A stretch of 64,000 nucleotides of DNA, from assembly GCA_043808155.1 (NCBI GenBank), contig JAZDFD010000012.1, positions 1 through 64,000 on the forward strand, given 5' to 3'. The DNA is from Candidatus Iainarchaeum sp. GTDB lineage: Archaea; Iainarchaeota; Iainarchaeia; Iainarchaeales; JAZDFD01. The notes beneath the pieces were generated by a model that had not been told where the DNA came from, did not search any database, and saw only the letters and a program-made list of their open reading frames with translations. The translations under genes and the position numbers were made by a program. Below are positions 40,759-56,874 of the stretch, one piece after another. Positions within the stretch are counted from its first letter, which is position 1. Each line of letters begins with the position of its first letter.

Positions 40759-41502
40759 ATGACTCACCCTATTTTGGAGAAAAAAATCAAGTTCGCGTTG
40801 AATGATTTAGTGAAGAAAAGGCACACGTTTTCTTTGGATGAAGTAAATGAGTATCTTGAACCCGAAAACAGAATGGATTTTAAGGATATTTTTGAAATAG
40901 CTCATCCTATTCTGCAGAAAATGAATGTTTCATGGCATGGTGCAGCAACCCCTCCATGCATAATGATTTCTGCTGATGAATCCTTCATTGCCAAGGTCCA
41001 TGTTGTTCAACAGCATTTCCCTGATTTTATGGGCGAGGGGGAGTGGAGCGCAATTGTTGAATTGTTTAAGGAAAAAGGTGACGTCAAATGGGCTAAGATT
41101 TTAGGCGGCTTGCTTGCCGAGTATATGAAAAGAAATCCTGAGTTAAAAAAGGTTGATTTTATTTCCCCAGTTCCTTGCGATAGGGGAACCATAGAGAGTT
41201 TAGGCTATGATCCCAACATGCTGCTTGCCGCTGAAATTATTAAAGAAACAAACATTCCTGCAATAAAAGTTTTTTCAAAGACACAAAAAACTAATTTTTG
41301 CAAAATGAAGTCGTTGAACGAAAAAGAAGAATTGGTTAAAAATACTTTTATTTTGATTAATGAGGATTTGATTAGAGAAAAACATGTTTTGCTGCTGGAT
41401 GACATTATGAATTCCGGGGCAACAATAAAACAGTTAACTGGAATGCTTGAAAGAGCCGAAGCAAAAAAAACAGACGTGCTTGTATTAAGCCAAAACCGCT
41501 AA
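40759..41502 (+). CDS. ComF-family phosphoribosyltransferase-like protein
   Basis: PVP...GY..., VLLLDDIMNSGAT PRPP-binding loop. Confidence 0.8.
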   Translation: MTHPILEKKIKFALNDLVKKRHTFSLDEVNEYLEPENRMDFKDIFEIAHPILQKMNVSWHGAATPPCIMISADESFIAKVHVVQQHFPDFMGEGEWSAIVELFKEKGDVKWAKILGGLLAEYMKRNPELKKVDFISPVPCDRGTIESLGYDPNMLLAAEIIKETNIPAIKVFSKTQKTNFCKMKSLNEKEELVKNTFILINEDLIREKHVLLLDDIMNSGATIKQLTGMLERAEAKKTDVLVLSQNR

Positions 41503-41511
41503 ATCTTTTAA

Positions 41512-41877
41512 CTAAGTTTTTTTCAAGTATTCTTCCAAAATTTTTACTCTGCTACTTTTTGGTAATTTTTCTTTTTTTGAATAAAGCAGTTCAGCTTTTT
41601 TAAAGGGTTTTATTTCTTTTAACTCGTTTTGAATTTGAATTGCTGTTTCTTCCAGGGCATTGATTCTTGAATAAATGTTTTCTTGCTGGTTTTTTAACCC
41701 GTTGATTTCTGCCAAAAAATCATTGTTTTGTAAACTGCCTGTTTTTTGGTTTTTTAAAAGAGTTGTTTCAAAACCAGCGTTTGCCTTTTTATTCTTTTTT
41801 TCGGCAAACCAGAGCACAGCGTTTGCTGAGCCAAACAAGCCAATTAAAACTAACAAAAAAATGGTTATTGCAGACAT
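41512..41877 (-). CDS. Membrane-anchored coiled-coil protein
   Basis: N-terminal transmembrane segment followed by a coiled coil. Confidence 0.6.
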   Translation of the reverse strand: MSAITIFLLVLIGLFGSANAVLWFAEKKNKKANAGFETTLLKNQKTGSLQNNDFLAEINGLKNQQENIYSRINALEETAIQIQNELKEIKPFKKAELLYSKKEKLPKSSRVKILEEYLKKT

Positions 41878-42065
41878 AGTACCCCCCCTCCCGCAATATA
41901 ATTAAAAGAGGCGAATCCTTTAAATAGCTTATTAATTTGTTAAGGTTAATGCATTATTTTTTTACTTTTTGCTCTTTCCATAATAGAATTCGGCAATGTA
42001 TCTGTCCATTTGCTGCGCAAAAGCCTTAAACTTTTCCTGTAATCCCTTAACTGAACTCAATCCAC

Positions 42066-42836
42066 TCACCTGCGCCTTGCCAAAAACGTGTTAAATCTAT
42101 CCATAATGGATGTCTTTTCCTCGTATTTTTTCCCAATTAATGTAGCGGCAATTTGTTTAAACGCATAAGCAGCCGGAGAAAAAGGGTAAAGCGTTACAAC
42201 AGGCTGCCCAAAAGAAACAGAGCTCGCCACCAACGAGTCTTCAGGCACTTTCCCCAAAATTTTAATATTTCCCATGATCAAAACAATTTCCTCATCAGTT
42301 AGCTCGTGCTTGAATCTTCCGCTCCTGTTAATTATTACTCCCGCGATTTCTACTCCAAGATCTTGGGCAATCTGAATAGTTTTGCTCGCATCAGCCAACG
42401 AGGGCAATTCAGGGTTCAGGACAATAATCGCATTTTCACTTGCCTTAAGAGCATTAATTACTTCAACCCCCAAGCCGGGAGCGCAGTCAATTAAAGTCAA
42501 ATCGTTGTTTGCTTCAATTTTTTTAATCAGTTTCTTAAATTTTTTTGGTTCAAATCCCTGAAGGCTTTCAACGCCGAATGCAGCCGGAATCACTCTGACG
42601 CGTGGTTTCAATAAATAGGTTGCTTTCTCTATTCCGGCTTCTCCTCTAATTACGTCATTCAATGTTTTCACTTCTACCGGAATCTTTAAATGCAGTGCAA
42701 TATTGGGCGTGGGCAAATTAGCATCAACAATAGTTATATCCTTTCCAAACATCCCTAATGCCACACCTAAATTGATTGTTGTGCAGGTTTTTCCAACACC
42801 GCCTTTTCCACTGCAGATTAAAAAACTTTTATTCAT
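42066..42836 (-). CDS. minD: MinD/ParA-family ATPase
   Basis: SGKGGVGKT deviant Walker A, VDAN, IDCAPG, C-terminal amphipathic IMDRFNTFLARRR. Confidence 0.85.
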   Translation of the reverse strand: MNKSFLICSGKGGVGKTCTTINLGVALGMFGKDITIVDANLPTPNIALHLKIPVEVKTLNDVIRGEAGIEKATYLLKPRVRVIPAAFGVESLQGFEPKKFKKLIKKIEANNDLTLIDCAPGLGVEVINALKASENAIIVLNPELPSLADASKTIQIAQDLGVEIAGVIINRSGRFKHELTDEEIVLIMGNIKILGKVPEDSLVASSVSFGQPVVTLYPFSPAAYAFKQIAATLIGKKYEEKTSIMDRFNTFLARRR

Positions 42837-43460
42837 TCAAAATCTCCTAAGCTTTTTCAATTTTTCTTCTAATTCCTTAAATCTCTTTGCACTCCAATTA
42901 AATTCTTCTTCCTCTTTTGTTTTGGGGATTGAAATTTCAGTGTAATGCCCGATAATAGTAGCTGTTTCAACAGGCTTTTTTTCTTTCTCAACTTTTTCAA
43001 TTTTTGGTTTTTCTTCCGGCAAAGATTCTTTTAAAATAGCGGCAACTAATTCTTTTTCTTTTTCAACAGGCTTAACAGCTTTCGTCTTAACCTTTGGCTT
43101 TAATTTTATTCTCTGGTTTTTAATTTTTTTCTTTTTTTCTCTTTTAACTTCTTTTTTTAATTCTGCTGCGACAGCTTTAACTTTTTCCTCAACAGCTTTA
43201 ACTGGTTTTTCTATTTTCTCTTCAACCTTTTCAGTAACAGCAGCTATTTCTGGAATTTTTACATCAAATTTGGCTGCTCTTCTGTTCCATTTTGCTGTAC
43301 GTTTTTCTGCCCAAGTATCCGTCCTTGCCTTTCTTCTGGCATGCCTAAAAGCATGTTTTTCTGCCCAAGTATCCGTCCTTGCCTTTCTTCTGGCATCCCT
43401 TGCAGCATCATTTCTCTCAATTTTCGCATGATGCAAATCAATTTTTCTCTCCAAATCCAT
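42837..43460 (-). CDS. Basic low-complexity protein with an 18-aa repeat
   Basis: ARRKARTDTWAEK twice (42-bp exact repeat at 43301 and 43355); Lys/Glu-rich; C-terminal coiled coil; abuts minD. Confidence 0.65.
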   Translation of the reverse strand: MDLERKIDLHHAKIERNDAARDARRKARTDTWAEKHAFRHARRKARTDTWAEKRTAKWNRRAAKFDVKIPEIAAVTEKVEEKIEKPVKAVEEKVKAVAAELKKEVKREKKKKIKNQRIKLKPKVKTKAVKPVEKEKELVAAILKESLPEEKPKIEKVEKEKKPVETATIIGHYTEISIPKTKEEEEFNWSAKRFKELEEKLKKLRRF

Positions 43461-43477
43461 ACATATCACGTGTAAAT

Positions 43478-43627
43478 TTATTCGGCTTCAAGTTTTTTGT
43501 CCCTTTCTTCAAGCCACTTGTCCCACTTTCTCTTCCACTTTGCGCTCTTGCCTGTAAAGCCACTTCTCCTTGCCCATTTAGCATTCCATCTGGCTTCCCT
43601 TCGAGAGGCTTTTTCCCCCAATTCCAT
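43478..43627 (-). CDS. 49-aa Trp/Arg-rich small protein (absent from the ORF track)
   Basis: MELGEKASRREARWNAKWARR...; GGTGG RBS; resembles the N-terminus of the next ORF. Confidence 0.55.
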   Translation of the reverse strand: MELGEKASRREARWNAKWARRSGFTGKSAKWKRKWDKWLEERDKKLEAE

Positions 43628-43650
43628 TTTAAATCCACCAAATAAAAATT

Positions 43651-43938
43651 TTATTTTGTTTCTTCCTCACTTATTTCTGACGGGCCAGTATCGCATTTTC
43701 TCCTTACTGAAACCCGACTGTAACCCAAAAGATTATTGCTTGCATCAAAGGTCAACTTGTATTGGCCAATGAGGTTCTGTGTGTCAGGTATTGCTTCCCT
43801 TTCAAGCACTTCAACCAATGCAACTGATTTGTTGCCTTCTTTTGTTACGCTGATTACGCTTAACGGCTTTTTATCTATCAGCTCTTTAACGTTTTCCTTA
43901 GCCAGCTTAACGATTTCATTGAATTCATTTTTTGCCAT
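43651..43938 (-). CDS. gvpO: Gas vesicle protein GvpO
   Basis: VEVLERE.IPDTQ.LIG.Y....D...L.GY.R. Confidence 0.88.
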   Translation of the reverse strand: MAKNEFNEIVKLAKENVKELIDKKPLSVISVTKEGNKSVALVEVLEREAIPDTQNLIGQYKLTFDASNNLLGYSRVSVRRKCDTGPSEISEEETK

Positions 43939-43956: not shown

Positions 43957-44322
43957 TCAGGGGACATAAATGTAATGATCTCCCTTTTCCTTAACAACTT
44001 TTACTTTTTTATTTTTCCATTTACGAATGTTATCAACTAAATTGTACTCCTCCGGAGAATCTGTTAATTTGTAGTAAGTTAAAAATTTCGCAAGCTTCTC
44101 CCTTCTTAACTTGGCAATGTGATTCGGGGTTTGCAATGAAAAAGTTCCGTCTGCTTTCAGGCAGGTGAAAAAAGTTTCCTTTACATTTTCACCGCCTTTT
44201 ATTTTTGCTGTAACAACAATTGCATCAGTGTCATTGAATGTAAGGCATTTGGGCTTGCGTTTCCATAAATCAAATACTTTGTAAATCTTTGCATCTTGAA
44301 TCACTGCATTTTTTTCTTCCAA
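43957..44322 (-). CDS. Hypothetical protein inside the gvp operon
   Basis: Tightly packed between gvpN and gvpO. Confidence 0.6.
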   Translation of the reverse strand: MEEKNAVIQDAKIYKVFDLWKRKPKCLTFNDTDAIVVTAKIKGGENVKETFFTCLKADGTFSLQTPNHIAKLRREKLAKFLTYYKLTDSPEEYNLVDNIRKWKNKKVKVVKEKGDHYIYVP

Positions 44323-44328
44323 ATTAAT

Positions 44329-45393
44329 TCACCATTTGTGCAAGTTTAATTTATCGATTGCGGTTTTAATTAATGCCCCTTTCTGCTCCAAGTCCACTGA
44401 ATCCTTTGTCTTTGAAGCAATTGCATCAAAGCATAATTGCTCAAACAAATCCGTGCTCATGCCGTTTGTTACTCTAATTGCATGGGCAAGCATTATCGCT
44501 GGTCTTGTTCCTGGGGCTTCGGTTCCCTTCAGAGTTTCCCTCAAGTGCCTGACTACTCCAACTATTTTTTTAGCATCTGCGTCAGCAATTTTGGCGTGGG
44601 CCTTAACTATTGCAACTTCAGTTGCCTCGTCATAGTAGTCCATGTAAATTGCGCAAATTCTGTCCAGCAAAGCATCTTGCGGCTGGTGTACGCCGGCATA
44701 CTCAGTATTGTTTGAGGTTAAAATCAGATTGAAATCAGGGTGCACTTTTATGTAGCGATCTTCACCAAACTTTGTTGGCAGTTCAAGAATTCCTTCTTCT
44801 AAAATCGAAAGCAAAATGTTATTTGCCTCCGGCTTTGACCTGCTGAACTCATTATAAATCAGGGTATAGCCTTTCTGGCAGGCTAATGCCAAAGGGTTGT
44901 TAACCCACTGCGGCTCAATAATGTCCTCACTTTTGTAAACATTGTGAATGTACTTATCCCTCAGGCTTTTCATTTCAATTCTTGAGTAGCCGCCAATTAA
45001 CTCATGAGTTGTAAGCTGTTCATCCCCGTTAATCCAAACTGCGGGCTTTCCCAGCTTTTCAGCAATGTGAATTGCCAAAGCAGTTTTTCCACAGCCTGTT
45101 GGACCAATAATATGCACGGGATAGCCGGCCTTAATCCACAAAAGAGCCCTGTCCTCATATTTTTTAACTGCATCTGTTAAAACAAAATTTTTCGATTCTG
45201 GGGTTAAAAACTTTGCTTCAACAATCTGGGTTTCCTCCAGCTTGTAAGTTTTCTCAATATCTCTTTCCCTTACTGCTGATTTTTTTCTTTCAACAGTCTG
45301 CTGTTTTTTTCTTTCCTCCTGCGTATGATGAACTGATTTCCCTCTAGTAGTTCTCGGATGTGTTTCTACATATGTCATTTCTTTAACCCCCAT
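44329..45393 (-). CDS. gvpN: Gas vesicle AAA+ ATPase GvpN
   Basis: GYPVH..GPTGCGKT, YNEFSRSKPEANN.LL, EYAGVH..QDALLDR. Confidence 0.95.
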   Translation of the reverse strand: MGVKEMTYVETHPRTTRGKSVHHTQEERKKQQTVERKKSAVRERDIEKTYKLEETQIVEAKFLTPESKNFVLTDAVKKYEDRALLWIKAGYPVHIIGPTGCGKTALAIHIAEKLGKPAVWINGDEQLTTHELIGGYSRIEMKSLRDKYIHNVYKSEDIIEPQWVNNPLALACQKGYTLIYNEFSRSKPEANNILLSILEEGILELPTKFGEDRYIKVHPDFNLILTSNNTEYAGVHQPQDALLDRICAIYMDYYDEATEVAIVKAHAKIADADAKKIVGVVRHLRETLKGTEAPGTRPAIMLAHAIRVTNGMSTDLFEQLCFDAIASKTKDSVDLEQKGALIKTAIDKLNLHKW

Positions 45394-45579: not shown

Positions 45580-45951
45580 TTACTCTTTAACATGGCCGTG
45601 GTAGAACCGATCAATGAATTTCTCTGTGTCCTTTTCTAAAGCCCTTATGCTGGCATGCATTATGTTAACGCCTTTCTCTATTTCTCTAGTTTTTTCTCTT
45701 ATGCCAGCTTTTACTGCATCGATACCTTTTTCAATTTCCTTTACGGCTGCTGTGTTTTCTCGCTCCTGTGCTCTAATGCCAGCAACTACTTCCGAAGTGC
45801 CTTTCTCCATTGCCTTTACTGCTGCTTCATTTTCTCTTGCTTGCCTTTCAAATGATTCCAGATGTTTTTTTACACAAGTTACTTTCTCTTTTTCCCTATG
45901 TTTTACTCTGTGCTTTACCTTATGTCTGGTTTTAAGTTTCTTTCTAGCCAT
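45580..45951 (-). CDS. GvpC-like helical repeat protein
   Basis: Lies between gvpA and gvpN; about 25-aa repeats Q.REN.AAVK..EKG...V.AGIR. Confidence 0.6.
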   Translation of the reverse strand: MARKKLKTRHKVKHRVKHREKEKVTCVKKHLESFERQARENEAAVKAMEKGTSEVVAGIRAQERENTAAVKEIEKGIDAVKAGIREKTREIEKGVNIMHASIRALEKDTEKFIDRFYHGHVKE

Positions 45952-45993: not shown

Positions 45994-46215
45994 TTACTTT
46001 GCCGGCGCTGCTATCGCTGCTTGCTCTACCTTTGTAATCTCTTCAGCGTAGTGCAGGAACGTATCAACACTTGCTACTACAACACGAGCTTCAATAGTTA
46101 AAATTTCAATTCCAACCAATGAAATTCTTGCCCATATGTCTACCACAATTCCTTTGTCTAAAATTCTGTCCAAAACTTCTGCTAAGCTTGAAACATCAGG
46201 TCCTTGATTTACCAT
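45994..46215 (-). CDS. gvpA: Major gas vesicle shell protein GvpA
   Basis: [51 protein letters not shown]; start MVNQ after a GGAGGTG RBS. Confidence 0.97.
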
Positions 46216-46304
46216 AGCTTTTACACCTCCATTTTTATTGTAAAAACTTACATTAGAAATATGTAATAGGTTGCTTATATGCTGATTTAACAAATCGCGA
46301 CATG

Positions 46305-46319
46305 TGTCGGAATTCGACA
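46305..46319. promoter_or_regulatory. Palindromic operator candidate upstream of gvpA
   Basis: TGTCG-GAATT-CGACA; the same motif recurs at 48090 and 48120. Confidence 0.6.
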
Positions 46320-46518
46320 TTTGGTTAAATGCCTCAAAATATTTTTACTTGCTCGCCAGGTCTTTTCTTTTAACATACGTCAAGACCTTTTCGTCATCTC
46401 GCTTGGGGCAACTGGCTCTGAGCCAAAAACACTCTCTGCTGAAAAAAATAAAAACTTTTTCTAATCATATCAATTATTAAATATTTTTGTTGCAAATTTT
46501 ACATATTGAGATAAATGC

Positions 46519-47670
46519 GTGAATGAAATGGCAAAAAGTTCAATTGTTAAATTAAAGCGCCGAAATAAAGGCATCGAAGCAGATGAATTTATTAGATTTT
46601 CCAAAAAAATTCCCTTCACACAAAAGGAGCGAATTGTTTTTTATGGCTTAGTTAAATTTCCTGACTTAAACGACCAAAAATTGTCCAAAAAATTGAAAAT
46701 TAAGAGGCCGACTGTTACAGCAATCAGAAATAAGTTGAAGAGGCAAAATTTTTATTTTCCTCGCGTTATCCCAAATTTTAAATTGCTGGACTATGAGTTA
46801 ATGACATTTATTTGGGGTAATTCAAGCTACTCTGTATCATTGGAAGAAAAAAGAAAAATTTCTGCAATTAAAAACGCTATGCAATCGCCTGAAGTAGTTT
46901 TTCAAATTATAACAGATAATGAATTTTTTTCTTTACTAATTTTTAAAAACTTTACAGAATTTAAAAAAATGGAGGATGGATTTGCACACATGTATAAAAA
47001 ATATTCTTCCAGGGAACGCAATGTTAACATTGCCCATTTTCCACTTGAAACAAGCGAAATACTTTCTTTATTTGATTATTCCTTATGTTTAAAAGATTTG
47101 TTAAAATTAAAGCCTGAAGACAAAAAGACTGCAACAAAACCAAAAACATCAAAAGCAGTGCCATTAATGGAACTGAAGGAAAGAGAAAAGGCTGTTTTAG
47201 GCGTTCTAATCAAATACCCTGGATTAAATGATGCGGAGATTGCAGAGAAAGTTAGCATCACAAGGCAAACTGCTTCAAAAATTAAAGCAGGGTTAATAAA
47301 AGAAGGGGCAATTAAACTAATTAATGAGCCGAATTTTAAAAAAATTGGCTGTGAGTTATTTGTTGCCACGCATACTAGATTTAATCCCCAAGTTGAACCA
47401 AATAAAAGAAAGTTGTTGCTGGAAAAGCCAAAAAGCAAATGCCCCACAATAATTGACGTGGAAAGCTGTACAGAAGAAATGTGTGGCGGCTTTTTCGAAG
47501 ATTACCTAAGCTTTAAAATGACTCAAGACGATTTGGAAAAAGTTTATAGGCAAAAGGATTTGTTGTTAAGAGAACCAGTAACCCAAATAATTCCAATGCA
47601 ACAAATAAAATTTTACAAAATAGATTTTGTTCCAATTACTGAAAAAGCCTTGAATATAAAAATACCATAA
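46519..47670 (+). CDS. Tandem winged-HTH (Lrp/AsnC-like) regulator
   Basis: Two similar halves: L.K.P.LND..L...L.I.R.T...I...L. Confidence 0.75.
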   Translation: MNEMAKSSIVKLKRRNKGIEADEFIRFSKKIPFTQKERIVFYGLVKFPDLNDQKLSKKLKIKRPTVTAIRNKLKRQNFYFPRVIPNFKLLDYELMTFIWGNSSYSVSLEEKRKISAIKNAMQSPEVVFQIITDNEFFSLLIFKNFTEFKKMEDGFAHMYKKYSSRERNVNIAHFPLETSEILSLFDYSLCLKDLLKLKPEDKKTATKPKTSKAVPLMELKEREKAVLGVLIKYPGLNDAEIAEKVSITRQTASKIKAGLIKEGAIKLINEPNFKKIGCELFVATHTRFNPQVEPNKRKLLLEKPKSKCPTIIDVESCTEEMCGGFFEDYLSFKMTQDDLEKVYRQKDLLLREPVTQIIPMQQIKFYKIDFVPITEKALNIKIP

Positions 47671-48089
47671 AAAAGGATTATTTTTTCATTTATTTTGATT
47701 TCTGCCACTCCTTTAACTCCCACCATTTTATCAAACAGTTTCTGACAGCAAAACCTAATTCTTCATCATCAATTTTGTTAATTATTTGAAGCCTCTTTAC
47801 CACCTCTTTTGGAATATTCATTTCCAACTTTTGTTTTGCTAGCTTTTTAGTCATTTTGAAAAACCAATCCCACGGCAATTTATTTGAATTGAAAAAGAAA
47901 CCGACATATCTATAATCTTAACTTTTAGATGTTTTAAAAGCTTAATTAATAACTTTAAGTTTTAAAAAAGAAAAAAAATATAACTTAGTGATATTTTATT
48001 TATCAAATGTTGTGGTTAAAAGTATCCGAATATTAACGTAAAGCATTTAAATTCTAACATTATGATAGTATCGGGTTAATTAATATCCG

Positions 48090-48134
48090 TGTCGGATAAT
48101 GACATAAATTTCAGAAATATGTCGAAGCCCGACA
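48090..48134. promoter_or_regulatory. Two operator-like palindromes upstream of the rightward gvp operon
   Basis: TGTCG-GATAA-TGACA and TGTCG-AAGCC-CGACA, 30 bp apart. Confidence 0.6.
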
Positions 48135-48266
48135 AAAAAGAATAAGTCTCAAAAATTAGGGGTTGGGATATTTGGCTAAATGCATAACTAATAAAGAAAA
48201 AGCAGCGAATTCTTTTTCGGAGAATGGAACATTCAAATCACAGTCTCTTTCGGGGGGGGGCAACGA

Positions 48267-49148
48267 ATGAAAAAACATGAATCCCACACCAAAAAAATCA
48301 AAACTATTTTTTCAGGCATTGGTGGGAAGAAACACATATTGCATTTATACGTTCCAACATTGGATAAGTATGCAATTCAGTCCTCTTTTCTGGGAAATAA
48401 AAAAGAAAAAGCTGCCTATGTCTCAACCGAGCAACCAGAAACTGTGCATGCACAACTTGATTCATCACACAAAAACTTGTCAATAATTTCTCCAAAGGAA
48501 ATGGAAACAATTGAAAACTATAATAAAATAATTATTGATGCAGGCTCAATCAGTTCAAAAACAATTGACACCAGCAAAAAACACAAAAGAAAAATTGGAG
48601 AAGACTTAATAATAAAGGAATGCACAGACCACATCAAAAGGGAAAAATATTTATCAAAGCTTAAAGGTGATAAATCAATTCTCTGCACTTATGATATAAG
48701 CAAATTAACACCAAACAAAATCAGGCAATTAGTTAAGGTCCATGACCAATTGATTTTGACAACAGACGACACAGCTGTGGTTTCATCAAAAACCCTTTCA
48801 CAAGAGCATTTGAACATCAGCAGTGAATTAATCGACGAATTCCTAAAAAATGAATTAGAAACAGTTGTTTTGGCACTAATTGTAGCAAAACCGAGGTGCG
48901 GGACAGAAATCAAAAAAGCAATCCATAAAAAATTTGGAATTCTGCTCAGCTCCGGCACGCTTTATCCCTTACTGCACAAGCTGCAAAAAAACGATTTAGT
49001 GAAATGCGAGTACGGGGTAAAAACAAAAACATACAGACCAGCTAACGGAAAAGATATTCAAATAATTTTGGATGAAAGAATGAAGGCAAAAGATTTCTTA
49101 ACCAGCTTTATTCAAGCAAACATGGGGGGGAATAAAAAATGGCTTTAG
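48267..49148 (+). CDS. MEDS-like sensor domain plus PadR HTH (GvpE-like regulator)
   Basis: N-terminal HILHLY...ILCTYD; C-terminal G.EI...I...FG.LLSSGTLYPLLH.L. Confidence 0.7.
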   Translation: MKKHESHTKKIKTIFSGIGGKKHILHLYVPTLDKYAIQSSFLGNKKEKAAYVSTEQPETVHAQLDSSHKNLSIISPKEMETIENYNKIIIDAGSISSKTIDTSKKHKRKIGEDLIIKECTDHIKREKYLSKLKGDKSILCTYDISKLTPNKIRQLVKVHDQLILTTDDTAVVSSKTLSQEHLNISSELIDEFLKNELETVVLALIVAKPRCGTEIKKAIHKKFGILLSSGTLYPLLHKLQKNDLVKCEYGVKTKTYRPANGKDIQIILDERMKAKDFLTSFIQANMGGNKKWL

Positions 49149-49798
49149 GTGAATATGTTTACTGTGTTATATCTAGCAAAGACACGCCAGAAGAATTTAA
49201 TATTAAAGGGATGGACGGAAATCCCATATATCCCTTAAAATATAAACTTCTTACAGCAATAGCAAGCAAAGCAGTAATGAAAGAATACAAGCCAACAGAC
49301 GAAAACGTTGAAATACACAAAAATGTTGAACTGGAAGTAATGAAACACTGCTCGGTTCTGCCAGTGGCATATGGAATGGTATTCAAAAGCAGGGGCATTG
49401 TATTGGGAACAGTGAAAAAAGTTTATCCATTGCTTTGGAGAAGCCTGAAAAAAGTGGAGAATAAAGTAGAATTGGGAATCAAAGTAATTGTTCCAAAAGA
49501 AAAAAAAGAATTAGAAAAATTATTGAACAAAAAAAGTTTGGATGAATTCAGGAAAGAATGCGAAACAGAATTCATTGAAAATTTGAGTGAAATAGCTGTA
49601 AGTACAAAAAAAGACCGCTTGTTTTCAGATAAGCTGGTTTGCAACCAGTCATTTTTAGTGGAAAAAGATAAAGTTGATACATTCACTGAAAAAGTGGGGG
49701 AATTGAGAAACAAGCACAAGTCATTGAAAATCCAGTACACTGGACCATGGCCGGCGCACAACTTTGTAAACATAAGAATAATGGGTGGAGGCAGATAA
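49139..49798 (+). CDS. gvpF: Gas vesicle protein GvpF (GvpL/F family)
   Basis: YVYCV, H..V, VLP..YG.VF, SFLV, YTGPWPAHNFV. Confidence 0.9.
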   Translation: MALGEYVYCVISSKDTPEEFNIKGMDGNPIYPLKYKLLTAIASKAVMKEYKPTDENVEIHKNVELEVMKHCSVLPVAYGMVFKSRGIVLGTVKKVYPLLWRSLKKVENKVELGIKVIVPKEKKELEKLLNKKSLDEFRKECETEFIENLSEIAVSTKKDRLFSDKLVCNQSFLVEKDKVDTFTEKVGELRNKHKSLKIQYTGPWPAHNFVNIRIMGGGR

Positions 49799-49800
49799 AA

Positions 49801-50103
49801 ATGGTGCTTATGGTTGATGATTTACTTACATTGCCATTTGCATTTGTAGGCATGGAGCTCTTGCCTAATTATTTTACTATTATATTTAATGCAATATATA
49901 AACACACTCTTGAGGAAATGTATCCCTTGGATAAAATCAATGACGCAATAAAAGAAAACCGTATGCTGTACGAGTTTGACGAACTTACAACAAAAGAATA
50001 TGAGGCAACAAAAAAACAATTAATGGAAAAATTGGAGATGGCAAAAAAGGTAAGGGATATGGATTTAGGACCAAGGTTAGATATTTTGGGAATTGGTGGT
50101 TAA
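49801..50103 (+). CDS. gvpG: Gas vesicle protein GvpG
   Basis: DDLL..PF...EEMY..D.I...IKENR.LYE..E....EY; start moved to 49801. Confidence 0.8.
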   Translation: MVLMVDDLLTLPFAFVGMELLPNYFTIIFNAIYKHTLEEMYPLDKINDAIKENRMLYEFDELTTKEYEATKKQLMEKLEMAKKVRDMDLGPRLDILGIGG

Positions 50104-50105
50104 AA

Positions 50106-50669
50106 ATGGAAAGAAAAAGAAAACCTGCGAAAGGATTGTTGGATGGATTGGCAGACTTCATCCGGTTGATTGAGGAAATGGAAAAAAAGGGCTTGACTGA
50201 ACAGGTGAAAAGGGGAGACTTGGAAGGGCCTTACGGCTCAAAAGTAAAATATGAGTACAGGGTAAGAACCGGTTTGGGAATAAGGCCTGGGAGCATGGAA
50301 AGGTTTGCAGGCAAACCAAGCGAACCATTTTATAGGGCAAGCAAAAGAATGCCAACCAAGGTAATAAAGCCGGAGGAAATGAAAGAAAAAGAGGAACTGG
50401 CAGAAGTAACAGAAAAAAAAGACACAATAGAAATTACAGTTGAACTGCCCACGGTTGAAGAAAAAGACATTGATTTAAAGATAGTGAAAAACGCTTTGAA
50501 AATTACTGTTAAAAGACCTGAGGGAAAAATAGAGAAAATGATTTCAATTCCAAAAGGCAGCAAAGCAGAAAAGATTGAAAAGGCTTCATTCAAAAACGGC
50601 ATACTTGAAATAACTTTAAAAAAGAAAATAAAGAAGAAAAATAAAAAGGGGGTAAAACCAAATGGTTGA
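50106..50669 (+). CDS. gvpH: Gas vesicle protein GvpH (Hsp20-like)
   Basis: YEY.V.TGL, VELP.V....I, FKNGILEI; follows gvpG. Confidence 0.75.
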   Translation: MERKRKPAKGLLDGLADFIRLIEEMEKKGLTEQVKRGDLEGPYGSKVKYEYRVRTGLGIRPGSMERFAGKPSEPFYRASKRMPTKVIKPEEMKEKEELAEVTEKKDTIEITVELPTVEEKDIDLKIVKNALKITVKRPEGKIEKMISIPKGSKAEKIEKASFKNGILEITLKKKIKKKNKKGVKPNG

Positions 50670-51039
50670 CGAAATCGGCAGATGGAAGGTTGGAGCTGAC
50701 TCAGTGGACAGAAGGGACGTAATAAAAGACAGAATCAGAAGGAGGGCGGAGCAAAACTTGGAAAAAAGCAGGAGAAAAATTCTGGAGCTCAGGAGAAGAT
50801 ACAAAATAAAAGTCAAAAGAAACGAGGAAAAAATGAAGAAGCGCAAAAAATATGGGGAAAAGCTGGGCCCAACATGCGTTTCCCTGATGGATTCAAGGGA
50901 AAAGGCAAAACAAAAACGCTCGGCAATAGGGTCTTTGGTTCCTGAAAAACCAAAGTTCTCCCAGGCAAAAGGCCGTCCGGAAAGAATCTATGGAAAAAAA
51001 TTTGAATTAAGGGAACTGAAACAAGAGCAAAGGAGGTAA
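50662..51039 (+). CDS. Highly basic protein, possible GvpI analogue
   Basis: Arg/Lys-rich; occupies the gvpI position. Confidence 0.5.
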   Translation: MVDEIGRWKVGADSVDRRDVIKDRIRRRAEQNLEKSRRKILELRRRYKIKVKRNEEKMKKRKKYGEKLGPTCVSLMDSREKAKQKRSAIGSLVPEKPKFSQAKGRPERIYGKKFELRELKQEQRR

Positions 51040-51045
51040 TCCCAA

Positions 51046-51432
51046 ATGAGAAGAAAGCATGAATGGATTCGCCAAAGAAAAAAGAGGGGGGAGGGATTTT
51101 CTGAAGAAGACTCCCCAGAAGAAACTACCGAGTTTGCAGAAGAACAGGCTGAAGAAGCAACGGGAGAACCGATTGAAGAAGCAGCGGAAGAAAAAATAGG
51201 AATAGAACCATTACAAGAACAAGAGGTTGTTTTAAGACCATTGAAAATAAGTTCACAGAAAAGAAGTTTCATAACATTCAGAAAAAGAAGAAAAATTGGT
51301 GATGGCATGCTTGAAAAAGAAATTAAAGAGCAAAAAGCCAAAGCTAAAAAAGCAATGAAAAAGCTGATAAACGAATTACCTGAAGAGCAGAGAAAAGCAT
51401 TCCTTGAGGAACTCCTTGAAGAATATGAATGA
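51046..51432 (+). CDS. Hypothetical protein with alternating charge blocks
   Basis: Basic-acidic-basic blocks; tightly packed in the operon. Confidence 0.55.
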   Translation: MRRKHEWIRQRKKRGEGFSEEDSPEETTEFAEEQAEEATGEPIEEAAEEKIGIEPLQEQEVVLRPLKISSQKRSFITFRKRRKIGDGMLEKEIKEQKAKAKKAMKKLINELPEEQRKAFLEELLEEYE

Positions 51433-51448
51433 GTTTGAGTGAAACAAA

Positions 51449-51775
51449 ATGCCTAAATTAAGACCCAAAAGTTATCAATCGCACGGAGTAAAGCAAATTA
51501 TTGAAAGAATGTTAGACAAGGGAGTAGTAATTAATGCAAAGATTAGAGCTTACCTTGTTGATTTTAAATTAATTGAGCTGGAAAGCATTGTTGTGCTTGC
51601 GTCGTTTGAAACTGCGGCAAAAATTGGCGTGTCTTTCCCAAAGGGTATTGATTTTGAAACAAAAGCATGGAAGGAGCTTTTAACAAAAGAAACCTGTCCT
51701 CAATGCAGGAAAAAGGTCTATGAAGAAGAACTGCGATTAGGTTGTCCTTGGTGCAGCTATAAATTAGGAGGTTAG
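51449..51775 (+). CDS. GvpA/J-family protein with C-terminal zinc ribbon
   Basis: IERMLDKGVVIN...ASFETAAK.G; CPQC...CPWC. Confidence 0.85.
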   Translation: MPKLRPKSYQSHGVKQIIERMLDKGVVINAKIRAYLVDFKLIELESIVVLASFETAAKIGVSFPKGIDFETKAWKELLTKETCPQCRKKVYEEELRLGCPWCSYKLGG

Positions 51776-51782
51776 ATTTAGG

Positions 51783-52193
51783 GTGAAGGAAAAAGAGAAA
51801 TTGGAAGTAATTGAATTTGAAGATGAAGAGGCATTGCAGCCGGAAAAAAGCACCCAAACAGATTCAACTCTAGCAGCAGTGATTGACAGAGTATTGGAAA
51901 AGGGGCTGGTGATAAATGCAGACATAACTGTAAGCGTTGCTGATACGGAACTGCTTGGGATAAAAATCAGGGCAGCACTGGCAAGTTTTGAGACAGCGGC
52001 AAAATACGGCTTGCAGTTTCCTCAGGGCACGAATATGGAAACAGCAGCATGGAAAGAGGCAATAGTTGAAAAGGAAGAATGTCCAAACTGCGGAAAGAAA
52101 GTGGAAACAGAACAGCTTTTGAATAAGTCATGCTATTGGTGCGGATGGCAGTCTGCTAAATCAAAAGCTTTGAAAAAAATTGAAGTTCGTTAA
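51783..52193 (+). CDS. gvpJ: Gas vesicle protein GvpJ with C-terminal zinc ribbon
   Basis: LAAVIDRVLEKGLVINADI.VSV...ELLGIKIRAALASFETAAKYGL.FP.GT; CPNC...CYWC. Confidence 0.88.
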   Translation: MKEKEKLEVIEFEDEEALQPEKSTQTDSTLAAVIDRVLEKGLVINADITVSVADTELLGIKIRAALASFETAAKYGLQFPQGTNMETAAWKEAIVEKEECPNCGKKVETEQLLNKSCYWCGWQSAKSKALKKIEVR

Positions 52194-52212
52194 AGCTGTA
52201 AAGGTTTTTGCA

Positions 52213-52395
52213 ATGATTGACCCAGTTAGCCAAACAATTCTAAGGAGGATTGAAGAAAGGGTAAAAGCAGAACCAAGAGAGGGGAATATTGCCTATAGAA
52301 AGCAGTGTCCAAGGTGTATGAAATGGCAAGTAAAAGAAGTTTTAATGAAAGAAGGTTGTTTTAAATGCGGATGGAAACAAAACAAAGCAAGGTAA
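52213..52395 (+). CDS. Stand-alone zinc-ribbon protein
   Basis: CPRC...GCFKCGW, with the same spacing as the GvpJ tails. Confidence 0.6.
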   Translation: MIDPVSQTILRRIEERVKAEPREGNIAYRKQCPRCMKWQVKEVLMKEGCFKCGWKQNKAR

Positions 52396-52913
52396 ATTTA
52401 TTCATGAATGAATTGGATACCGAAAGCAGGTCAATTGTTTCATATCTTTTAATCAAAAAGCATGCGCGAATAAATGAGTTAAGTGATTTAATAAACGAAA
52501 ATGATACTCTTACTATAATTAAAATAAAGGAAGCCATAAATCCGCTGGCTGAAAAAATTTTTGGAATGCAGATTCTTGTTTTTAAAGAAAGTGCAATTGA
52601 TATAAGCGAAGGAAGGAAAGTATTGTTTTCCTGGTGGCTGGAAAACGCGGAAGAATTAATTGAAGAGCAGAAAAAGGAATTAATTGATGTTTTTGACGAA
52701 AAAGATTATGTAAAAGTTGTAATGGAACTGCCTGACAGCAAAAATATTAATGCAAAAATCAACGGAAACGAACTAATAATAACTGCAGAAAAATCAAATG
52801 AAAAAATTTGCAGAAAAATTCCCTTAAGTGCGGATGTGAAAAAAATAATTGGAAAAAGATACAACAACAGCGTGCTGGAAATTAAACTGGAGAAAGGGGC
52901 GGAAAATGTCTGA
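52365..52913 (+). CDS. HTH-like N-terminus plus Hsp20-like C-terminus protein
   Basis: DVFDE...VKVVMELP...NNSVLEIKL; start may be 52403. Confidence 0.65.
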   Translation: MRMETKQSKVNLFMNELDTESRSIVSYLLIKKHARINELSDLINENDTLTIIKIKEAINPLAEKIFGMQILVFKESAIDISEGRKVLFSWWLENAEELIEEQKKELIDVFDEKDYVKVVMELPDSKNINAKINGNELIITAEKSNEKICRKIPLSADVKKIIGKRYNNSVLEIKLEKGAENV

Positions 52914-52971
52914 AAGGAAGAAAAGAAAAAGTAGCGATTGGTTTGAAGAATTTTGGAAAAGGTAATAAAAA

Positions 52972-53316
52972 ATGGTTACAAAAATTGATTTGAAAAATGA
53001 TGACAAAGAGAGCCTGAAAAACGGCGTAATGGGATTGGTGCTTGCAATAGTTGAAGTGATAAGGGATGCCTTGCGCCTGCAGGCAATAAGGCGAATTGAA
53101 GGAGGCTCTCTTACAGAAGAAGAAGAGGAAAGATTGGGAAGAGCGTTGGAAGACTTTGATGAAGCAATTGAAAAAATGAAGGAAGAGCAAGGCCTGAATG
53201 AAGCAACGCAAAGTGTTAGAAATGGTCTTGACGATTTGGCAAACGATTTAGTGAATAACTTTCTCAATGAGGAGCAAATAAAAGCTGCAGATAAGGGTGG
53301 AAAGCTTGGAAAATAA
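52972..53316 (+). CDS. gvpK: Gas vesicle protein GvpK
   Basis: G...LVL.IVE..R..L..QAIRR.EGGSLTEEE.ERLG.AL. Confidence 0.92.
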   Translation: MVTKIDLKNDDKESLKNGVMGLVLAIVEVIRDALRLQAIRRIEGGSLTEEEEERLGRALEDFDEAIEKMKEEQGLNEATQSVRNGLDDLANDLVNNFLNEEQIKAADKGGKLGK

Positions 53317-54073
53317 AGAGCAGGGAAGGTATATTTACTGCGTAGCAAAAGGCAGTGAACAAACAGATTTGGGGAAAATAGGGATAGAAAACAGCGAAGT
53401 TTACACTATTCCAAGCAATGGATTAATTGCAGTAGTGCATGACTGTGGAGCAAAAGCATACGATTCAAAAAATGAGGAAAAAGTGAAGGAATGGATTAAA
53501 CAGCATGAAAATGTGATAGAGAAAACGCAGAAAAAATTTGAAACAATTGTTCCATTAAGTTTTAATGTAATAATAAAAGGGGAAAACGCAAGCAAGGAAG
53601 TGACTAATTGGCTGCAAACTGAAAAAGAGAGACTTGAAAGAAACCTGGAAAAAGTAAAGGGAAAAGAGGAATTCGGAGTGCAAATAACTTGGGACCCTAT
53701 AAACATTGGAGAAAAATTAAGCAAAGAAAAAGAGGGAATCAAAAGTTTATTAGAAGAGATGGAAAAAGCCTCAAAGGGACAGGCCTACTTTATCAAACAA
53801 AAGATAAAGAAAGCATTGAAACAGGAAATGGAAAAACTGGCTGACGAGAAATTCAAGCAATTTTATTCAGAAATCAAAAAGCACTGCTACCGGGTAAATA
53901 TTGATAAAAACAAAAAAACCGAGGTAGAAAAAGAAATGCTAATGAACCTGAGCTGCCTTGTGGCAAAGGAAGAGGTTAAAGCCCTTGGAAAGGCGCTGGA
54001 TAAAATAAACAAATTAGATGGATTTAGTGTAAGGTTCACAGGTCCCTGGCCGCCTTACTCATTTGTAACTTAA
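53297..54073 (+). CDS. gvpL: Gas vesicle protein GvpL (GvpL/F family)
   Basis: GRYIYCV, HENV, IVPLSF, NLSCLV, FTGPWPPYSFV. Confidence 0.9.
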   Translation: MESLENKEQGRYIYCVAKGSEQTDLGKIGIENSEVYTIPSNGLIAVVHDCGAKAYDSKNEEKVKEWIKQHENVIEKTQKKFETIVPLSFNVIIKGENASKEVTNWLQTEKERLERNLEKVKGKEEFGVQITWDPINIGEKLSKEKEGIKSLLEEMEKASKGQAYFIKQKIKKALKQEMEKLADEKFKQFYSEIKKHCYRVNIDKNKKTEVEKEMLMNLSCLVAKEEVKALGKALDKINKLDGFSVRFTGPWPPYSFVT

Positions 54074-54080
54074 AGGAGCG

Positions 54081-54395
54081 ATGAAAATGGAACCAACGAG
54101 AGAAAAAAATGCAACGCTTGTTGATGTGCTGGACAGGGCATTGAATAAAGGATTGTTAATTAATGCTGACTTAATTATTTCAGTTGCAGATATCCCGCTT
54201 ATTGGGGTTAATTTGAAAGCAGCAATTGCAGGAATGGAGACAATGCTCGAATATGGCATGATGAAAGATTGGGATGAGGCATTGAGAGCAATTGCAAGGG
54301 AAGAAAGAGCTAGAATTGCAAAAAAAGAAAAAATTATTACGTCTTTAAGTGAGAAAAATGAACACAGCACTATATCTTTACTGCGCAGTAAATGA
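54081..54395 (+). CDS. gvpM: Gas vesicle protein GvpM (GvpA/J/M family)
   Basis: MEPTR...LVDVLDR.L.KG....AD.IISVADIPLIG.NL.AAIAGM.TM.EYG...WDE. Confidence 0.85.
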   Translation: MKMEPTREKNATLVDVLDRALNKGLLINADLIISVADIPLIGVNLKAAIAGMETMLEYGMMKDWDEALRAIAREERARIAKKEKIITSLSEKNEHSTISLLRSK

Positions 54396-55071
54396 AAGAA
54401 GTGAAAAAAGCTTTGGCCACATTGGCTTTCAGGAACAGGAGGTTTACGCTGTTCCGTATAAAACTATTAGTGTTGTTGTGCAGTCTTGCTCTGCTAAGGA
54501 ATTAAGGAACAAGCGCCAAACAGAGTTAGCTATAAATCACCAATATATAATAGATTTGGTAATGAGAGAATTTAATGAGGTAATTCCATTTAATGCTGCT
54601 ATAGCGGTTAAAAACAAAAAAAATTTGAATAAAGTGCTTTCACTCAAATACAAAAAAATTAAATCAGAGTTGGCGGAAAAAAAAGACAAAAGGGAATACG
54701 GCATTCAAATATTTTATTCTCCTCTCTATTTAAAGGAAAAAGCAGGGGTTTTAACCAGTGTAAAGTCATTTGTTTTGCAGCAGGAGCAAAAAAGAAACCT
54801 GTCAATGCATAAAGAAGCCAAATACAAAACCTTCCTGTTAAACGAGTTAAGGGAGTTAATTGATGAAATAAAAGTTAACTCCGCTTTCAGGGCATCAATT
54901 GAAGACTTAAGGGATAAAAGAATTTTATTAAACTTAAGCTGTTTGGTGCATAAGGACAATGCAAAAAAACTTGAGGAAAAACTTGCTGAAATCAATAATA
55001 AAAAGGAATTCACCGTCAAATTTAACGGCCCGTGGGCGCCATATTCTTTTACAGAAATACTTGAGGAATGA
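54349..55071 (+). CDS. Third GvpL/F-family protein
   Basis: LYLYCAV, VIPFN, EYGIQI, NLSCLV, GPWAPYSF. Confidence 0.85.
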   Translation: MRKMNTALYLYCAVNERSEKSFGHIGFQEQEVYAVPYKTISVVVQSCSAKELRNKRQTELAINHQYIIDLVMREFNEVIPFNAAIAVKNKKNLNKVLSLKYKKIKSELAEKKDKREYGIQIFYSPLYLKEKAGVLTSVKSFVLQQEQKRNLSMHKEAKYKTFLLNELRELIDEIKVNSAFRASIEDLRDKRILLNLSCLVHKDNAKKLEEKLAEINNKKEFTVKFNGPWAPYSFTEILEE

Positions 55072-55074
55072 AAA

Positions 55075-55761
55075 ATGAGGAAATTGTTGTATGTGCCTAT
55101 TCTGCATTCCGCTGCAGACCTTGGCAGTATTGGGAAAGATGTTACAAGCAAGGGAGTTGAATTAGTTGGCCCAGAAAAATGGAAAAAGCATTTGCACACA
55201 ATTGACTTGTTTTGGGATTCAATTGAAAACTATTTTCATGAACTGAACGTAGAGAAATTTAAAATATTTCAAGACGGCTTTGTTGTCAGCGGAGAAACCA
55301 GTGAAAAAATTGTTAACGAAGTAGCAGCAAAGGGAAGCAGAAACTATGAAGTAATTAGAGACCTCATTAGCAGGGGCGCAAAAATTATGAAAACAGAGGA
55401 GCTTTCTTTAGTTAAAAGAGAGGTAGTTTACGTAAGCAAACTTGCAAAGGCAAAAAAGTTAACAGAAAAACTGACTGCTTATTTGCAATATAAATTAAAC
55501 AAAGGAAACCTGTTAAATAAAAGGGATGAATTTATTGCAAAAACAATTAATGAATCCTTAAAAGAGGGGGAAACTGGCGTATTGTTCTTGGGGGCATTCC
55601 ATAATGTAGTGCCTAAACTTGAGGGAGATATAAAAGTAATTGAACTGAAGGAAAAAGAAAAAGTTGTCAAATACCAGAAAATTTATTACTTCAAAACAAA
55701 AGAAAAGGAAACAGATGAGTTAAGCAAATACCTTGTGGCGCCAATAAAGGAAGTGTTTTAA
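55075..55761 (+). CDS. Hypothetical protein at the end of the gvp operon
   Basis: YVPILH..ADLGS, QDG, RDEFIA..I, LFLGAFH (TraB-like motifs). Confidence 0.65.
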   Translation: MRKLLYVPILHSAADLGSIGKDVTSKGVELVGPEKWKKHLHTIDLFWDSIENYFHELNVEKFKIFQDGFVVSGETSEKIVNEVAAKGSRNYEVIRDLISRGAKIMKTEELSLVKREVVYVSKLAKAKKLTEKLTAYLQYKLNKGNLLNKRDEFIAKTINESLKEGETGVLFLGAFHNVVPKLEGDIKVIELKEKEKVVKYQKIYYFKTKEKETDELSKYLVAPIKEVF

Positions 55762-55762
55762 A

Positions 55763-56194
55763 ATGAAAAACTTCAGGGAACTGCATGGAAAAAAGAGGAG
55801 AGGCAAAGTTTCAGCAAAGAGAAAAATGGAGCTAAGCGAAAAAAGATTGCTGGCAAATGCAAGAAAAGTGTTTCAAAAAATCAGGAGAAGAAAGAAAACA
55901 AAAGAACTGGCTTCACTGCTCCCTGATACTGCAATAAGAATTGATTTGGTTGGCTCGCCGGAAGTAAGCTTTATGCTGTTAATAAAAAATGGGAAAATTG
56001 GTTTTTCTACAAAGAGAACAGCTGCGAGGCTTGCAATAGGAATCCATAAAGAGCTGTTCTTAAAACTAATTAAAAATCCCCCTAAAACAGGGAACCTGAA
56101 AATTGCATTATTTGACAACATTTTCCTAAGAAAGGGCCCGATAAGGGAATTTCGATGGCTAAAGGCAATCTTGGTGCACTTTTTGTTAGGGTAG
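55763..56194 (+). CDS. Basic hypothetical protein, possible SCP2-like fold
   Basis: Operon-packed; weak beta-strand pattern. Confidence 0.5.
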   Translation: MKNFRELHGKKRRGKVSAKRKMELSEKRLLANARKVFQKIRRRKKTKELASLLPDTAIRIDLVGSPEVSFMLLIKNGKIGFSTKRTAARLAIGIHKELFLKLIKNPPKTGNLKIALFDNIFLRKGPIREFRWLKAILVHFLLG

Positions 56195-56264
56195 AAAATA
56201 GACTTATATAAGTACCCCCTGAACTAAAAGAAAAATAAAAATTGAGGGTTTAATTGAATCTTAT

Positions 56265-56699
56265 TTATTCTCCGCCCTCTATTTCAGCACACTCGCCTTC
56301 AACGCACTCTTGCCCTTCAGCACATTCCACTTCTGCACAAAGATCAACTGCAATACATTCTCCTTCAAGGCATTCCTCTCCTTCAAGGCATTCAACGCTT
56401 TCACAGGGATCCACAATCACTGTCTGGCATTCAACAGCACAGCACGCTTCGGTATCACTTGCTTCAATTAACTGCTCGCAGGTTTGCTCTTCTGCGCAAA
56501 TGCTTCCGTCCTGCTCTTCACAGGTTTTCAGTACACACTCGCCTTCAGCGCACTTTTGGTTTGCTTCGCAGGTAACGTCAGCGCAAGGGTCTGCTGGAGG
56601 AGTTTCCTCTTCTTTCACTGGTGGTATAGTCAACACAATTGCTGCCAATATTACAATGACTACAACGCCAATAATTATGTACAAAGTATTATTTTTCAA
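56265..56699 (-). CDS. Membrane-anchored acidic Cys-rich repeat protein
   Basis: DPC..V.C..G..C..G.C repeats. Confidence 0.75.
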   Translation of the reverse strand: MKNNTLYIIIGVVVIVILAAIVLTIPPVKEEETPPADPCADVTCEANQKCAEGECVLKTCEEQDGSICAEEQTCEQLIEASDTEACCAVECQTVIVDPCESVECLEGEECLEGECIAVDLCAEVECAEGQECVEGECAEIEGGE

Positions 56700-56874
56700 A
56701 TTAATAACCTCCCTAAAGTTTGTTAATTAAAAAGTTTATTGTTTAATTAAAAGTGTTGGAGAAATCGGAGTTCGACTCAGAAAGCTAAAAGAAGGGATGG
56801 CAGGGGCAAGCCACTCACATATGATAGCCCCTGCTAATAAAATGGCAACTTAGAAGAAAACCACTTTAAGCATT

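Follow-up and report, generated by a model that had tools for sequence, protein, structure and literature searches.

The stretch of DNA analysed here (the window: 64,000 nucleotides (nt) of Candidatus Iainarchaeum sp., contig JAZDFD010000012.1, with a G+C content of about 35%) carries a full gas vesicle (gvp) gene cluster at 45994–56194, arranged in two divergent parts. On the minus strand, downstream of gvpO, lie a gene for a MinD-type ATPase and, directly before it, a gene for a small and very basic protein, hereafter the partner, and it is with these two genes and their relation to the gas vesicle genes that we are concerned. An earlier reading of the letters alone (the original prediction) had taken them for a candidate system for positioning gas vesicles; the genes that it named downstream of gvpO are all confirmed in place on the minus strand, and its interpretation is partly supported. 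The minus-strand part of the cluster and its continuation read, in order:

45994..46320, minus strand: gvpA (PF00741, E 2.6e-14; NF006874, 1.5e-37, and NF046092, 3e-38, both above cut-off)
45580..45951, minus strand: gvpC-like gene, 123 amino acids (aa), with about three internal helical repeats; named from position and repeat make-up only
44329..45393, minus strand: gvpN, an AAA+ ATPase (TIGR02640, 1e-102; score 343 bits, cut-off 266.8)
43957..44322, minus strand: orf121, an open reading frame (ORF) of 121 aa between gvpN and gvpO (coding score 0.192)
43651..43938, minus strand: gvpO (PF05800, E 1.5e-16)
43478..43627, minus strand: orf49, 49 codons rich in W, R and K, 23 nt after gvpO, with GGTGG upstream of its ATG
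42837..43469, minus strand: the basic partner protein, 210 aa if started at a GTG and 207 aa if started at the ATG at 43460
43301..43408, no strand: tandem duplication of 54 nt inside the partner gene, two copies, 93% identical
42066..42836, minus strand: minD, 256 aa (TIGR01969, E 4.1e-66, above cut-off), its start abutting the partner stop
41962..42069, minus strand: orf35, a possible ORF of 35 codons whose GTG overlaps the minD stop (GTGA); coding score 0.099
41512..41877, minus strand: membrane-anchored helical protein, 121 aa; its N-terminus is hydrophobic and it contains a long helix; preceded by a gap of 188 nt

Compared with the Gvp models of Pfam and NCBIfam, orf49, the partner, MinD and the membrane protein give no match at E 0.01 or better, in agreement with the earlier claim that the module stands outside the canonical gvp set. 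The genes are closely strung together: gvpN is the first member of a tight chain that ends with minD, in which the five gaps measure 6, 18, 23, 8 and 0 nt. The window has 28 further gaps between neighbours on one strand, of which 7 are 25 nt or shorter, with a median of 71 for the whole set, and five successive gaps of at most 25 nt exceed what the gene density of the window gives. The ATG of minD starts on the base right after the TGA of the partner gene, and an AGGAG lies upstream of it, inside the final codons of the partner.

The module had been described as appended to a gvpACNO operon, and gvpA, a gvpC-like gene, gvpN and gvpO are indeed there; however, orf121 stands between gvpN and gvpO, and the 186-nt gap between the gvpC-like gene and gvpN contains runs of T7, T5, T5 and T8 as well as TATA-like stretches. 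Oligo-T is a termination signal in archaea. The 188-nt gap before the membrane protein gene likewise holds TATA-like stretches, together with a G-rich site, and a T8 run follows that gene at 41463–41470. Because the stronger punctuation lies before gvpN and around the membrane protein gene, we propose three likely transcription units. The first joins gvpA and the gvpC-like gene, the second extends from gvpN as far as minD and may take in orf35, and the third is the membrane protein gene, for which a promoter and a ribosome-binding site of its own are probable. A scan with bacterial-type models, uninformative for an archaeon, returned 11 promoter-like sites where 12.1 were expected and 2 terminator-like sites where 4.6 were expected.

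The product of minD scores 222.7 bits against the archaeal MinD model TIGR01969 (minD_arch), whose cut-off is 201.75, and falls below the cut-offs of the bacterial MinD model (114.7 bits against 212.9) and of the ParA partition model (49.6 bits against 180), while its scores with ArsA-family models are far under theirs. The class of ATPase that had been assigned from the letters is thereby upheld, and its gene does follow the partner without a gap. Its best relative of solved structure is 1hyq (MinD-1 of A. fulgidus, 1.3e-43), followed by the Pyrococcus MinDs and then by FleN/FlhG and bacterial MinD. The deviant Walker A motif is intact (SGKGGVGKT), and K11, K16, T17, D38 and D117, whose roles we take to be those usually ascribed to these residues in MinD, are invariant in alignments of 18 and of 14 rows. 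The amphipathic C-terminal helix that had been claimed is also found, as the stretch SIMDRFNTFLARRR with a pattern at residues 243–254 that is conserved in the clade described below; residues 244–254 have a helical hydrophobic moment of 0.64 and the last 14 residues form an amphipathic pattern, so that this end may bind the membrane.

In a tree of 84 MinDs, the window protein falls within a clade of 18 (Shimodaira–Hasegawa-like approximate likelihood ratio test, SH-aLRT, 88), and a group of 21 has a support of 95; the sister group of the clade includes Micrarchaeota proteins named 'cell division ATPase MinD'. Identity to the window MinD is 62–88% within the clade and drops to about 50% and then to about 40% outside it. 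The tree sets the clade apart from the remaining DPANN MinDs in the sample. The MinDs of two genomes labelled Iainarchaeota or Diapherotrites (L010 and L019) lie outside the clade, on long branches, a hint that it represents an additional paralogue.

The partner has 63 K and R residues and 39 D and E residues among its 210 aa. The ATG at 43460 is the start common to the members of its family, and it is also the one used in the ESM Atlas record. A word-indexed search with the partner found 3 relatives and an exhaustive profile search of 1,835,955,588 representatives found 12 at E 0.001 or better, and Pfam gives no shared family for any of the 14 family members at E 1 or better; by these searches the family is rare, tiny and unnamed. 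Against Protein Data Bank (PDB) sequences the best E is 0.51, and Foldseek returned no PDB match at E 0.001 or better; the ESM Atlas gave no usable match. The 14-row alignment of the family shows an N-terminal basic helix that is conserved and includes a conserved tryptophan, then a lysine-rich stretch of very variable length, and after it a short conserved motif, a hairpin and a near-invariant C-terminal helix ending in RRF. For the window protein AlphaFold2 predicts helices at 6–68, 73–122 and 135–147, a hairpin at 169–182 and a helix at 192–209, with a predicted local distance difference test (pLDDT) score of 77.

Two features by which the original prediction characterized the partner fare differently under this comparison. 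The protein is basic and does contain ARRKARTDTWAEK twice, but the two copies arise from the 54-nt tandem duplication, and among the 12 of 14 alignment rows that cover the N-terminal region the duplication is found in the window protein only. As it has no counterpart in the other covering members, the repeat is recent and local and not a feature of the family. The terminal element is predicted as a helix, at 192–209, but the coiled coil that had been assigned to it is not borne out. A complex of two MinD, two ATP and partner residues 163–210 was predicted, using an alignment for each of the proteins, with scores of 0.34, 0.29 and 0.42 (controls 0.00, 0.19 and 0.01); the required margin was unreached, and the prediction counts neither way.

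We then have two genes, one of a distinct MinD clade and one of a rare family, whose company in other genomes can be compared with that of ordinary MinD genes. A genome scan with the 18-row MinD alignment provided the control set, which consists of the best 80 of at least 467 relatives (at least 599 stretches). The closest MinD among these 80 is 41% identical to the window protein and is no ortholog. With 16 query proteins from the gvp cluster (tblastn), none of the 80 loci gave a match, and the partner profile has no match in their 19,890 reading frames. As none of the 80 control loci holds either, ordinary MinD genes are not normally found beside gvp or partner genes.

A different pattern is seen when the contigs that bear the closest relatives are compared by length. 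There are 19 GvpO matches, or 18 when the window's own record is excluded, with 11 at 64–83% identity. GvpO P0125 and partner P0121 are both on contigs of 6,222 nt, both named Diapherotrites (expected by chance 0.002); MinD P0009 and partner P0122 are both on contigs of 3,339 nt (expected by chance 0.003); and GvpO P0129 and MinD P0015, the latter belonging to the deepest branch of the 18-member clade, are both on contigs of 5,440 nt (expected by chance 0.03). By these equal sizes, three other contigs each carry two of the relatives (GvpO and partner, GvpO and MinD, or MinD and partner), a co-location that is limited in extent. A further pair of equal size (1,810 nt), MinD P0100 and GvpO P0131, was rejected as a coincidence, about 0.2 chance matches being expected in a table of 119 by 18 and the identity of this MinD (41%) being far too low for a neighbour of that GvpO.

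On the basis of this linkage we tentatively favour, without rating it as probable, the reading that a MinD and a dedicated adaptor have been recruited into the gvpN–gvpO unit of a DPANN-type archaeon, where they would position gas vesicles, or the sites of their nucleation, at the membrane or apportion them between daughter cells. ATP-bound MinD would dimerize and bind the membrane through its C-terminal amphipathic helix. The adaptor would bind MinD and stimulate its ATPase through one of its conserved ends, and with the other it would hold either the vesicle surface or the GvpN/GvpO assembly machinery, the lysine-rich helical middle serving as a spacer. Cycles of binding and release might then place the cargo, as in other ParA/MinD systems. 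The genes from gvpN to minD would be transcribed together.

Several points weigh against this reading. Its support is gene linkage, and it is from linkage that we infer binding, stimulation of the ATPase, localization and an effect on the vesicles. Nothing in the ATPase itself indicates vesicles, its C-terminal helix and motifs being common to ordinary DPANN MinDs. A T5 run lies just 3' of the gvpO stop (43644–43648), one of 19 such runs in this 5.1 kb, and could cause partial termination. Close spacing is also seen between some neighbours that have nothing to do with each other, as the genome is compact. The two longest contigs with MinD orthologues, those of P0002 (97,173 nt, 88% identical) and P0004 (51,367 nt, 86%), have no counterpart of equal length among the 19 GvpO hits; either these contigs end near minD or their orthologues lie away from gvpO. 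The GvpO relatives on the matching contigs are close (77–81% identical), so that the gene order in those relatives may be inherited and not selected. More distant GvpO relatives, named Nanoarchaeota and 52–58% identical, lie on contigs of 13,482, 74,284 and 12,398 nt, lengths that do not occur among the 119 MinD contigs listed. Finally, a search of plasmids with GvpN yielded 26 plasmid records, and a MinD-type gene is present in none of the 11 plasmid-borne gvp regions examined among them.

Taken together with the small excess of MinD orthologue clusters (17) over close GvpO clusters (11), some of these points suit an explanation in which the adjacency is incidental, that is, an ordinary MinD of the lineage and a lineage-specific partner serve division, the organization of the chromosome or envelope, or the placement of pili, a task proposed for archaeal FleN/MinD ATPases, and happen to lie after gvpO in a compact genome. 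The ordinary helix and motifs, the 'cell division' name carried by the sister group, the short gaps that also occur outside the gvp region (7 of 28), the large contigs free of a GvpO match and the T5 run behind gvpO are all compatible with it, as is the description of archaeal FleN/MinD ATPases, in the accessible text of PMC4858521, as general regulators that have many paralogues, whose genes often lie away from those of their targets and are sometimes linked to pilus loci. However, incidental adjacency does not readily account for five successive tight gaps, unusual for this window, nor for a partner family that is as rare as the MinD clade and has been observed with it alone. The three exact contig matches, which tie GvpO, partner and MinD together and include the deepest branch of the clade, speak against it as well, as does the hint from L010 and L019 of an additional paralogue. 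We regard incidental adjacency as a serious competitor, albeit a rather unlikely one.

It could also be that the module belongs to vesicle biogenesis and not to placement, with MinD and the adaptor either marking a nucleation site on the membrane or delivering and chaperoning hydrophobic Gvp proteins, in parallel with the role that has been proposed for ArsA-type ATPases in bacterial gvp clusters. The module shares its tight chain with gvpN and gvpO, whose products act in vesicle growth according to the accessible text of PMC9372576, and the gene that follows minD encodes a membrane-anchored helical protein. Homologues of ArsA, an ATPase of the same class, are reported together with Hsp20 in the gvp clusters of several bacterial phyla in the accessible text of PMC2963123, and the gvp cluster of the Nostoc plasmid p4 offers another case. 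Still, the canonical gvp set of the window is complete without the module, and the module is seen neither on the Nanoarchaeota-named GvpO contigs, among the matches listed, nor in the 11 plasmid clusters. In addition, MinD-family proteins are known as switches for placement and not as chaperones. A role in biogenesis appears unlikely to us. As for the ArsA parallel itself, both ATPases are of the same broad class, are foreign to the canonical gvp set and stand at the cluster end, but the ArsA homologues are two-domain proteins of about 600 aa, whereas the window MinD has a single domain and 256 aa.

Further ATPase genes were observed at the ends of gvp clusters in the plasmid survey. In the classic p-vac region of Halobacterium salinarum pNRC100 (L081, 7448–8212; VNG_RS12340) the first gene downstream of gvpO, 28 nt away and in the same orientation, is annotated 'ParA family protein', and such a gene has this position also in a plasmid of Haloplanus sp. 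GDY1 (L084, 6448–7212); the two plasmids share one block of 7.2 kb, 89% identical, which ends at the ParA stop codon. No ParA gene follows gvpO in any of the five other examined regions in which gvpO is annotated. The cluster of Nostoc sphaeroides plasmid p4 (L089, 9801–11705) closes with an ArsA family ATPase and, behind it, an AAA ATPase, and those of Methylocella and Methylosinus (L090 and L091) end in AAA or CDC48 ATPases. In 8 of the 11 plasmid regions there is neither a ParA after gvpO nor an ArsA.

The ParA of pNRC100 and Haloplanus is of the same superfamily as the window MinD and is likewise encoded downstream of gvpO on the same strand; it is, however, ParA-type and 27% identical to the window protein, it has no annotated partner gene, and it resides on a megaplasmid, where DNA partition is the obvious reading. 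Partition may be considered for the window too, in the form of a ParA-like ATPase and a basic, centromere-binding protein on a mobile element that carries the gvp cluster. The very basic composition of the partner (K and R make up 63 of 210 residues) would suit such a protein, gvp clusters are often plasmid-borne and mobile, as the 26 plasmid records illustrate, and pNRC100 has its ParA-type gene after gvpO. Yet the window ATPase is MinD-type, with a putative membrane helix and a score far below the ParA partition cut-off. The partner has no match to a helix-turn-helix, a ribbon-helix-helix or ParB, and no DNA-binding domain was found across the 14 family members; it has no plasmid match, and the best plasmid-borne match of MinD is 36.8% identical. 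Moreover, archaeal housekeeping genes flank the gvp cluster on both sides (an isoleucyl-type tRNA synthetase (IleRS), the thermosome, Alba, transketolase, a RIO kinase and CorA), and the 72 window ORFs scanned include neither an integrase nor a replication gene, for which reason the gvp region looks chromosomal. A partition cassette is accordingly very improbable.

The placement reading has its closest precedent in McdA and McdB, the carboxysome positioning system, which consists of an ATPase of the ParA/MinD family and a charged, partly disordered adaptor. The window resembles it in having a ParA/MinD ATPase gene beside that of a small, highly charged, low-complexity partner, near the genes of a protein-shelled organelle, and in the conserved ends and variable middle of that partner. 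It differs in that the window partner matches no Pfam family and in that its ATPase is of the MinD type and has a putative membrane helix at the C-terminus, which suggests the membrane and not the nucleoid as the matrix.

With other archaeal MinDs (MinD4, 1hyq, 1ion and 1g3q) the window protein has in common a TIGR01969 score above cut-off, the deviant Walker A motif and the amphipathic C-terminus. MinD4 of Haloferax volcanii places archaella and chemosensory arrays. Unlike these archaeal MinDs, the window MinD belongs to a clade of its own, at most about 50% identical to proteins outside it, and its gene is chained to gvpN, gvpO and a partner gene of an unnamed family. The 72 window ORFs scanned do not include a MinC or a MinE gene.

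Turning to gas vesicles, the one factor organizing their placement or inheritance that we found in the literature is GvpU, a phase-separating protein that clusters gas vesicles (bioRxiv 10.1101/2023.06.01.543273). According to its abstract, GvpU governs the location of vesicles in the cell and so resembles the proposed module as an accessory, non-structural product of a gvp cluster; GvpU, however, is without an ATPase, while what is proposed for the window is an ATP-driven switch whose partner component matches no Pfam family. The literature searched, with subscription journals and supplementary files outside its coverage, contained no paper that links MinD or ParA ATPases to gas vesicles and no description of gvp genes in these DPANN lineages, the matches concerning hosts or other organisms. 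An apparent 'MinD' in the accessible text of PMC9372576 proved to be the ordinary word 'mind', and a search for McdA with gas vesicle gave only unrelated word matches. GvpO-named proteins from Diapherotrites and Nanoarchaeota metagenome-assembled genomes are present in the protein collection. Uncultured DPANN archaea are also the closest named relatives of the window proteins: GvpO and the partner lead to 'Candidatus Diapherotrites', and the next group of MinDs leads to Micrarchaeota.

If the favoured reading is correct, gas vesicles would join chromosomes, plasmids, carboxysomes, chemoreceptor arrays and flagella among the cargos of ParA/MinD ATPases. The cargo would be new to such systems, and so would the adaptor family, which has the simple layout of two conserved ends and a spacer, but the principle would not. 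Active sharing of vesicles at division would matter in such an organism, since a cell a few hundred nanometres across presumably holds very few of them. The presence of a complete gvp cluster in a DPANN-type genome is of interest in its own right, and accessory genes that set the number or position of vesicles would be of interest for engineered acoustic reporter cells.

A broader proposition may be put forward, one that we consider doubtful, namely that vesicles have an ATP-driven placement and inheritance of their own, based on membrane MinD and a new family of bipartite basic adaptors that tether and distribute the few vesicles for which a very small cell has room, and that gvp operons have repeatedly and independently acquired an ATPase of the ParA, MinD or ArsA kind at their 3' ends, namely MinD in the window, ParA in the p-vac region of Halobacterium and ArsA in bacteria. 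If true, it would point to a general and overlooked need for an ATPase of this class in gas vesicle cell biology.

Among the minor genes of the minus strand, orf49 had been reported as a Trp/Arg peptide, and an ORF rich in W, R and K is indeed present, but its coding status is uncertain. Its frame has a coding score of 0.161, and an ORF of 67 codons that overlaps it in another frame (43438–43641, minus strand) scores 0.134; since the two are nearly equal, the translated frame between gvpO and the partner gene, if there is one, is unsettled. The idea that orf49 is a shortened copy of the partner was not adopted, the similarity being weak and driven by composition (E 0.007, a single pair). In the case of orf35, the frame scores 0.099 where the other five range from -0.09 to -0.59; it has no Pfam family at E 1 or better and gives no alignment with the C-terminus of the gvpC-like protein.

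The downstream gene agrees with its earlier description as membrane-anchored in its hydrophobic N-terminus and long helix, but its 188-nt gap sets it apart from the module. Its product has no Pfam or NCBIfam family, and its matches in the ESM Atlas are all generic, of the kind that any transmembrane segment plus helix would give. No Pfam or NCBIfam match was found for orf121, and its single-sequence AlphaFold2 model is poor (pLDDT 39) and unusable; it may be a lineage-specific Gvp protein. The gvpC-like protein likewise has no Pfam or NCBIfam family at E 0.01 or better. The gvpA ORF is 108 aa long and its GvpA domain covers only residues 36–104, so that the start is likely the internal ATG at 46215, which gives 73 aa.

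The other part of the cluster lies on the opposite strand and is given here as context:

46519..56194, plus strand: divergent gvp cluster (Pfam matches)

Its order is a double winged-helix regulator, a PadR-like gene, gvpF, gvpG, gvpH, two unknown ORFs and two gvpJ-like genes, followed by an unknown ORF, gvpK, gvpL, a gvpM/A-like gene, a gvpF-like gene and two further unknown ORFs. The double winged-helix protein (46519–47670, plus strand) and the PadR-like protein (48267–49148, plus strand) hold the positions that GvpD and GvpE have in haloarchaeal clusters, and they are probably regulators of the gvp cluster. Six ORFs of 125–228 aa in the plus-strand cluster or at its end (50662–51432, 52365–52913 and 55075–56730) belong to no Pfam family. 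Rfam identifies two tRNAs in the window, neither within the studied region. Elsewhere in the window, a gene for a HerA-like ATPase (24486–27080, minus strand) is split by an intein with a LAGLIDADG endonuclease domain.

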